Notes under the pieces: model-generated | The model's input: only the letters and a program-made list of their open reading frames with translations | Told to the model about the DNA's origin: nothing | Databases searched by the model: none | Assembly (NCBI GenBank): GCA_000004695.1 | Contig: CM000154.2 | Span: 1,056,001 to 1,120,000 of the forward strand | DNA length: 64,000 nucleotides | Direction of reading: 5' to 3' | Source of the DNA: Dictyostelium discoideum | Taxonomy: Eukaryota | In this document: positions 7,770 to 9,000 of the stretch, piece after piece | Position numbering within the stretch: position 1 is the stretch's first letter | How the letters are laid out: every line of letters starts with the position of its first letter | Translations under genes and position numbers: made by a program

Positions 7770-9000
7770 TTATTCATTAAGATCCATTTCATTTAATTTA
7801 GCAATATCATCTTCATAATCAGAAGCTTCTTTTTCTTCTTCTTCTTCTTTTTCTTCTTCTTCTTCTTCTTCGACAGATTCACAATCAATTTCATCCTCAT
7901 CTAAATCAGATTCAAATTCAATACTTCTTTTTATATTTTCAAAACCATTTTTTAAAAAAACTTCATTTACAGTTTCACCTTTTAAATTTTTAATTTCAAT
8001 AATATGTTTAACGACTTTATTCAACTCGCAATGTGCAGAATTGATTGACGAGTAATTTTCGACAAATTCTGGTGAACAAGAATTGATATCGTCAATTAAG
8101 GTATCAAAGAATTCATCATCAATAAAAGTGTTGAAAAGTTTTAAACAGTTTGTTTCTTTGGTATATTTATTGACCAATTTTAATATATTGGCAATGCCAT
8201 CAAAATAGTAATGAAATAGATTTGCTTGAGCTTGAGCTGTTGAATAATTCTTTTTCAAACAATCAAGACAATCATTCTGTATCAAGTTGAGCAATTGTGG
8301 ATTGGAAGCACCAGTGATAGCGTTAATGATAGCCCAGGTGATTTCACGCTTAGTGTCCATATTGATTATTGGCTTTTTACCGTTTTCAATAGCTCTTTTA
8401 AGCAAAACCTCGTCTAAGACTCTTTGAATTTGACTCGATGGACCACTGGTAATATTTGACAAACACCAATAACCCTCCTTCACCAATGAGGCTTTTGGTG
8501 ATGATAAAAATTTAGGAAACACTTTCAATACATTAGATTGTAACAAAAACTCTGTAACGTCGTCAGGACCCGAGAGCATATTACCAATGGTACGAAATCC
8601 AGGTATATATAATGCAATGACTGTTTTGATCGGATTTGAAAATGATTTCAATGATGATCTGTGCCATTCCCATCGATATGACATTGCTAAAGATCTCTTT
8701 CTCTTCCGGGGTCGACTCAGTCAAGAAACATAACGCCCACAACGCGTCTGACACGATGTCCGCCTCTTTATGCCATGTCAAGAGTAAACTCTTTATGGAT
8801 GGTAATAGTGGCTTAATGAATCTAAATGCTGGACGTGGTGTACCACGACATAGATTACTAATGGTCCAACTTATATTTGAAACTAGTGATTTCTTTGTAT
8901 GAGTTTTCAATATCTCCACCAAATGTGGTACTAGTATACCCTCGTTGAGTATACTATCTCTATGTTGTGATGAATCACATATTATCCCATTATTACTCAT
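7770..9000 (-). CDS. Importin-alpha (karyopherin-alpha)-like armadillo-repeat protein. It lacks the IBB domain and the first ARM repeats, and a +/-1 frame disruption near 8600-8620 splits it into track ORFs 8581..9000 and 7770..8684.
   Basis: ARM-repeat signatures typical of importin-alpha: ..NISWTISNLCRG.., ..PGFRTIGNMLSGPDDVTEF.., ..KEGYWCLSNITSGPSSQIQRV.., ..TKREITWAIINAITGAS.., followed by an acidic tail. The two ORFs overlap by 104 nt in different frames. The sequence ..FKSDQN/VIALYIPGFRTIGN.. shows the 1-nt slip sits at a short A-run (caaaaca). Confidence 0.6.

Follow-up and report, generated by a model that had tools for sequence, protein, structure and literature searches.

Importin-alpha is built from an N-terminal IBB domain and ten tandem ARM repeats, which carry the W-x-x-x-N motifs for NLS binding. 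In canonical importin-alpha, the IBB domain provides importin-beta binding and autoinhibition, and an atypical ARM repeat (Arm_3) is found at the C-terminus. Duplicates of importin-alpha without the IBB domain are described in Drosophila, namely alphaKap4, alphaKap5, alphaKap6, alphaKap2A and alphaKap2D-H (PMC8645118). They are lineage-specific paralogues, which retain ARM repeats and lack the N-terminal IBB (PMC8645118).

Here we analyzed an importin-alpha-like locus of Dictyostelium discoideum, which lies within a stretch of 64,000 nucleotides (referred to as the window). The base composition of the window is 20-30% G+C, and it contains poly-N and poly-Q tracts. We propose, with a probability of roughly 0.9, that this locus is a non-functional, unprocessed (DNA-level) partial duplicate of the gene DDB_G0277993. 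The parent gene encodes an importin-alpha-derived ARM-repeat protein found across Dictyostelia, which is naturally without the IBB domain and the atypical C-terminal ARM. The window copy is an ordinary young pseudogene fragment and not a new kind of nuclear-import factor. Two by-products of the analysis, the IBB-less parent family and the patchwork around the copy, leave the current understanding of nuclear import unchanged.

A truncated copy of DDB_G0277993

An earlier note on this DNA had described importin-alpha-like ARM coding sequence at 7770-9000, and our analysis confirms it on the minus strand. Two open reading frames, whose frames differ by one, make up this region: ORF A (9000..8581, minus strand) encodes 139 aa, and ORF B (8684..7770, minus strand) encodes 304 aa. 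The joined product of the two matches the Pfam Arm profile with E=4e-14. Its best relatives outside the dictyostelids are importin-alphas with about 30% identity, and the match to an importin-alpha reaches E=5e-36. Exact look-up of the 304-aa ORF and two other ORFs of the window matched no record.

The closest proteins are four full-length sequences of 512-527 aa, from D. discoideum, D. cf. discoideum, D. citrinum and D. firmibasis. The D. discoideum protein cluster corresponds to EAL68169.1/XP_642059.1 of strain AX4, the 524-aa product of DDB_G0277993 (Q54YZ3, Q54YZ3_DICDI). The intact parent gene locates on a chromosome-scale record (CM142509.1, locus L001) different from that of the window (CM142511.1). 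We rebuilt its structure at L001 with three exons and two introns, and the spliced translation is exactly the 524-aa protein (P0011). Exon 1 (L001 10001-10036) is followed by intron 1 (107 nt, 5.6% G+C), exon 2 (L001 10144-10240), intron 2 (90 nt, 6.7% G+C) and exon 3 (L001 10331-11772).

Aligning the window with the parent locus by blastn directly revealed the homology: window 8978..7734 aligns with L001 10586-11809, with 95.3% nucleotide identity over 1246 columns. The aligned span comprises parent codons 128-524 with the stop codon, plus 37 nt of the 3' UTR. In the window, the coding part occupies 7770..8978 (minus strand); it starts at the tail of ARM3 and runs on through the acidic C-terminus to the stop codon. 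The start of the parent 3' UTR, of which about 37 nt are retained, occupies 7734..7769 (minus strand), where the alignment reaches L001 11809. The frame-corrected translation of the copy is 92% identical to residues 128-524 of P0011.

The copy is without exons 1 and 2 and the two introns, and its exon 3 lacks the initial 255 nt. We searched for the first 127 parental codons and the upstream exons by tblastn, across the whole window and 6.4 kb beyond its start, and found none, in line with the earlier statement that no upstream exon exists. Likewise, nothing that corresponds to the parental introns or promoter region turned up over this span.

The first parental residue in the copy is 128, which lies in the last helix of ARM3, just after the W-x-x-x-N motif. 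We take the parental segment NIWALGNIIGD to be the ARM3 W-x-x-x-N helix, with ARM numbering after published importin-alpha structures. Because the copy starts at the very end of ARM3, its first complete repeat is ARM4, and ARM1-3 are lost. The earlier note had placed the start of the protein at about ARM 3. The lost 127 codons encode ARM1-3, including two of the three W/N pairs of the major NLS-binding site, and the W-x-x-x-N motifs of ARM4, 7 and 8 are retained. The ARM array of the copy is incomplete, since it opens with the last part of ARM3 and is interrupted in ARM6. The copy shares the acidic C-terminal tail, the start of the 3' UTR and the downstream neighbour with DDB_G0277993. In contrast to the parent, which is intact and has ARM1-3, the copy is frameshifted and lacks the first 127 codons and the promoter.

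At the 5' junction (8979..9000, minus strand), the alignment of the window with four parent loci shows no clear parent homology. The junction reads MSNNGIICDSS in the window, compared with ...WALGNIIGDSS in the parent. A fortuitous ATG (9000..8998) in this junction sequence opens the 139-aa ORF.

About 150 nt upstream of the ATG begins a tandem repeat, (CATTAACA) x13 at 9148..9251, which is foreign to the parent gene. The upstream repeat noticed earlier is real, and its period is 8 rather than 9 as determined by TRF (13 copies, 84% matches). This (CATTAACA)x13 minisatellite occurs only once in the window and was not found in any fetched locus. On the other hand, we notice that GGTTCGATTC at 9038-9047 resembles a tRNA B-box/T-arm and adjoins a small palindrome (CTCTCTGATGAGAG). 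Scanning all 64 kb with ARAGORN and Rfam returned no tRNA and no other RNA gene, and we therefore dropped the idea that GGTTCGATTC marks a tRNA gene or a retroelement targeted to tRNAs.

Lineage specificity, age and selective constraint

The copy lies in a lineage-specific patchwork block of about 6.8 kb (5870..12750, minus strand), whose boundaries are approximate owing to A/T-rich low-complexity DNA. On both sides of the block, the window is colinear with locus L003 of D. citrinum, which includes an orthologue of the flanking MIT-domain gene (window 5493..3598) and contains nothing corresponding to about 5870-12750. This direct comparison is the synteny check that had been proposed earlier, and a colinear locus without the whole block agrees with the reading of a decaying copy. 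In the D. purpureum outgroup, the contig reaches only 633 nt upstream of the MIT-domain gene, which leaves insertion versus deletion unpolarised.

The pairwise dS between copy and parent is 0.051. By comparison, the AX4-type parent differs from other D. discoideum-group lineages by a dS of 0.22-0.27, and from D. citrinum by 0.64. Because a dS of 0.05 stands against 0.22-0.27, we infer that the duplication would be recent and lineage-specific, and would have occurred after the split from the other sequenced D. discoideum-group lineages.

In order to compare the two branches, substitutions were polarised by three outgroups, and the frameshift codons were left out. The copy branch has 24 changes (17 non-synonymous and 7 synonymous), and the parent branch has 8 (5 non-synonymous and 3 synonymous). 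This observed difference departs from equality (binomial p=0.007), and the rate of the copy is three times that of the parent. There are about 925 non-synonymous and 233 synonymous sites, and the 17N:7S of the copy is close to this site ratio of about 4:1. The omega on the copy branch is about 0.6, a value that rests on 24 changes and is statistically inseparable from weak constraint. Orthologue pairs of the D. discoideum group, by comparison, have a dN/dS of 0.12-0.29, indicating purifying selection. With these small counts, the direction of the rates fits relaxed constraint on the copy.

Meanwhile, we notice that the gene in the 'D. discoideum'-labelled assembly GCA_054859385.1 (L005) has a dS of 0.27 from the AX4-type gene, and that the 'D. 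cf. discoideum' gene is closer, with 0.22. The species labels of the new assemblies may be at odds with their relatedness.

Route of the duplication

The gene immediately downstream of the parent encodes a product of >3000 aa, and window 7685..7368 (minus strand) matches its exon 1. The neighbour piece follows the ARM piece, and all four parent loci (L001, L005, L006 and L007) share this order and orientation. The neighbour piece ends after GTATA, which are the first five bases of the neighbour's intron 1, and it carries a GAG->TAG nonsense change at 7583..7581. Between the two pieces, the copy has lost the spacer of about 460 nt by which the genes are separated in other strains, together with the first neighbour codons, and the junction is A/T-rich low-complexity sequence. 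An A8 run locates where the homology to the parent 3' UTR stops, directly followed by the neighbour-gene fragment.

As adjacent genomic features, including intron bases, were copied together, a segmental (DNA-level) duplication most likely fits better than retroposition. Of the two routes that the earlier note had left side by side, retro- or segmental copying, the neighbour piece and the intron bases that follow favor the segmental one and disfavor the other.

The alternative is a processed retrocopy, in which an mRNA was reverse-transcribed, possibly into a chimeric cDNA by template switching, and then inserted. We consider it improbable, although several observations are consistent with it. 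All recognisable fragments of the 6.8-kb block share one orientation, and the A8 run sits at the end of the parent 3' UTR homology. Moreover, the neighbour piece stops within 5 nt of the exon-intron boundary, and the next fragment begins about 14 nt before an ATG, like the 5' end of an mRNA. However, the gene that comes next in the copy is the physically adjacent gene of the parent locus, so that an RNA route would need a read-through transcript as the template, and the five intron nucleotides are kept. The A8 run is meaningless in a genome of 78% A+T, and beyond this run we found no poly(A) tail and no target-site duplications at the 3' end of the copy. We also sought TIR, LTR and target-site duplications at the block boundaries, which gave low-complexity matches only. 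The missing spacer does not have GT...AG ends either. Both parental introns lie within the part absent from the copy, and the retained part is intronless in the parent, so intron loss cannot be shown.

On the basis of DNA-level duplication, we propose that part of the parent locus was duplicated into intergenic DNA of a different chromosome in the AX4 lineage. The copied stretch would have begun midway along parent exon 3, spanned the 3' UTR and reached exon 1 and the first intron 1 bases of the next gene. The copy would have arrived without a promoter, a start codon and the first 127 codons. Later drift would have introduced the +7-nt frameshift, the in-frame +3 and +12 indels, and the 17 non-synonymous and 7 synonymous substitutions. 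Likewise, the loss of about 460 nt of intergenic spacer and the gain of the nonsense codon in the neighbour piece would be later events.

The neighbour piece is less diverged than the ARM piece, with 1 change per 224 unique nt versus 36 per about 1220, and the fit of both divergences to one event is marginal (Poisson p~0.07). At the AX4-type parent locus (L001 11810-13450), the spacer to the downstream gene is about 1.7 kb, and the corresponding spacer in three other strains/species is 280-530 bp.

The frameshift and the coding capacity of the locus

Comparing the copy with the parent and three orthologues revealed two insertions at 8604..8619 (minus strand), which are absent from all four parent sequences. 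One is a +3 insertion (CAT, 8619..8617), and the other is a +4 insertion in an ATATATA run (8610..8604). The two insertions (+7 nt in total) cause a net +1 shift in ARM6, and the original frame reads into a premature stop codon at 8581..8583 (minus strand). The frame change is confined between 8720 and 8584. The earlier note had put a 1-nt slip in an A-run at 8600-8620, which is the right place for a different lesion. The other indels of the copy, +3 at about 8927-8929 and +12 at about 7850-7861, are in-frame.

We further compared the window with a second D. discoideum assembly, GCA_054883475.1 (CM142511.1). It shows zero differences from the window across 7000-9400. Over window 1-15499 (15.5 kb), there are no mismatches and only four homopolymer-length differences (1202-1205, 2239-2242, 12551 and 12569-12573). 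Because the second assembly carries the same bases, a sequencing error is unlikely as the source of the slip, provided that the two assemblies are independent, as we assume. The disabling lesions are thus directly present in both assemblies: the 5' truncation, the +7-nt frameshift, the premature stop and the TAG of the neighbour piece. Together with the intact parent elsewhere, the 95% nucleotide identity and the absence from the D. citrinum locus, the truncation and the frameshift support the earlier suggestion of a duplicated, decaying copy, and the locus would be without function.

The annotation of GCA_054883475.1 places one 481-aa protein-coding gene over 9000..7204 (minus strand; L002 6494-8290). 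This call raises a second alternative, a functional, neofunctionalised short ARM protein with a single ORF, in which the slip is a sequencing error or is spliced out by a short intron. The 481-aa gene implies the intron version, and the downstream ORF is long (304 aa), with the W/N motifs of ARM7 and ARM8 intact. Nevertheless, such a protein is very improbable. The version with a sequencing error, which had also been offered earlier, fails because the two assemblies are identical base for base and additional lesions are present; the lesion is +7 nt and no homopolymer miscount. For the intron version, the segment 8584-8720 has 37.6% G+C and is homologous to an uninterrupted parent exon, whereas the real parent introns have 5.6-6.7%. 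An intron at this position would remove conserved ARM6 residues. In addition, the threefold rate of the copy relative to the parent speaks against a functional protein.

The 481-aa model strings together three unrelated pieces: the ARM fragment, the neighbour-gene fragment and an SCY1-like fragment. Reaching 7204 requires skipping the parental stop, a TAG and another stop. An exhaustive search for 481-aa models, allowing at most four GT-AG introns with lengths of 55-259 nt, found none, which may stem from these length limits. Since the model must bypass a frameshift in a conserved exon and skip three stop codons, it is probably an artefact of gene prediction. We have the same doubts about the neighbouring calls over the Sec16/FH2 fragments, of 102, 504 and 161 aa. 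The locus is called a 481-aa coding gene in at least one recent D. discoideum assembly, and it should be flagged as a pseudogene.

Programmed ribosomal frameshifting, by which both ORFs would be fused into one protein, is hardly credible: the ORFs overlap by about 100 nt in an arrangement fit for a +1 shift, but the parent and all orthologues use one frame here without overlap, the lineage-specific insertion already accounts for the shift, and the N-terminal truncation and the other lesions are left unexplained. Based on the identical second assembly, the lineage-specific +7 nt and the conserved exon, we rejected sequencing error, programmed frameshifting and a rescuing intron.

The IBB domain is absent from the whole parent family

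The pseudogene fragment has no IBB domain, as had been stated earlier. For the Pfam IBB profile (PF01749), we found no match at E<=1 in the window product or in the parent P0011, and none at E<=0.01 in four other dictyostelid members. The C-terminal atypical ARM (Arm_3, PF16186) is also absent in the window product, in the parent (no match at E<=1) and in the family members. In contrast, both domains are detected in a canonical importin-alpha control (P0033), with 3e-16 for IBB and 7e-16 for Arm_3. The missing IBB is a property of the whole parent family and not a sign of decay. As the intact parent and its orthologues are also without IBB, its absence is not due to truncation. The earlier interpretation, which took the absence of IBB as a mark of decay, does not hold for a functional parent and orthologues across Dictyostelia that lack it as well.

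The ARM domain of the parent aligns with importin-alphas in the PDB (e.g. rice importin-alpha1a, 2yns, and mouse importin-alpha) with E=1e-74. The W-x-x-x-N motifs of ARM2, 3, 4, 7 and 8 are conserved in the parent, and in this alignment parent residue 7 corresponds to the ARM1 start of delta-IBB constructs. Relatives in D. purpureum (DICPUDRAFT_153538), Polysphondylium violaceum (CYY_010159), Synstelium polycarpum (a Synstelium gene) and Cavenderia fasciculata (DFA_05135) begin at the ARM1 position too, and the family further includes the D. citrinum, D. firmibasis and D. cf. discoideum orthologues. The members have the same ARM architecture from ARM1 as the parent, without Pfam IBB and without Arm_3, and so differ from canonical importin-alpha, which has both. 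The family genes are complete and constrained within the D. discoideum group, whereas the window copy is a fragment. Judging from the sequences, this family could be a natural delta-IBB importin-alpha, able to bind NLS-like peptides without autoinhibition or importin-beta. A literature search on DDB_G0277993 and Dictyostelium IBB-less importins found nothing specific.

Drosophila alphaKaps set a precedent, so the loss of IBB alone need not mean pseudogenisation (PMC8645118). The dictyostelid family resembles them in being a set of lineage-specific paralogues with ARM repeats and no N-terminal IBB. However, the alphaKaps are mostly retrogenes with testis-biased expression and an independent origin, and no kinship to the dictyostelid family is implied. 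As a by-product of this analysis, we obtained a conserved and constrained dictyostelid importin-alpha paralogue without IBB and the atypical ARM, which is analogous to the Drosophila alphaKaps.

Other gene fragments in the block

All recognisable coding pieces of the 6.8-kb block are on the minus strand. One of them, an FH2 fragment of forC type (11356..11076, minus strand), has an internal frameshift and is 65% identical to the FH2 of D. purpureum ForC. Among its relatives are two copies annotated as small genes (P0019), both in a single D. cf. discoideum locus. The FH2 stretches noted outside the window are at L004 10126-10290 and 17485-17691 and at L008 8305-8797. Window 11235-10916 plus 9436-9085 matches the P0019 unit in colinear order, which places the Sec16 piece inside this unit. 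A concatenated query of neighbouring fragments gave one match only, P0019.

The Sec16 central-domain fragment (9889..9585, minus strand) contains an in-frame stop and a frameshift. It matches Pfam TPR_Sec16 with 6.7e-10, covering profile positions 1-77 of 298, and appears to be another pseudogene fragment. On the other side of the ARM piece, a 50-codon ORF (7356..7207, minus strand; MGQNLTASKSFPYNIGP...SIFSFDIN, then stop) starts about 14 nt past the end of the neighbour-gene fragment. This ORF presumably resembles the N-terminus of an SCY1-like pseudokinase, and a Pfam search with it gave no match.

Taken together, the block combines, in one orientation, pieces of a forC formin, Sec16, the importin-alpha-like gene and its neighbour, and an SCY1-like kinase. 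In this mosaic, one junction adjoins an exon-intron boundary, and a second precedes a start codon by about 14 nt. We regard it as unlikely that this mosaic of at least five unrelated genes, about 6.8 kb long, is the product of an undescribed gene-fragment-capturing process and not of serial random insertions. For such a process, template-switching reverse transcription or a Pack-MULE/Helitron-like element could be the capture route. A young patchwork of gene fragments could also show how Dictyostelium repairs or fills chromosome breaks.
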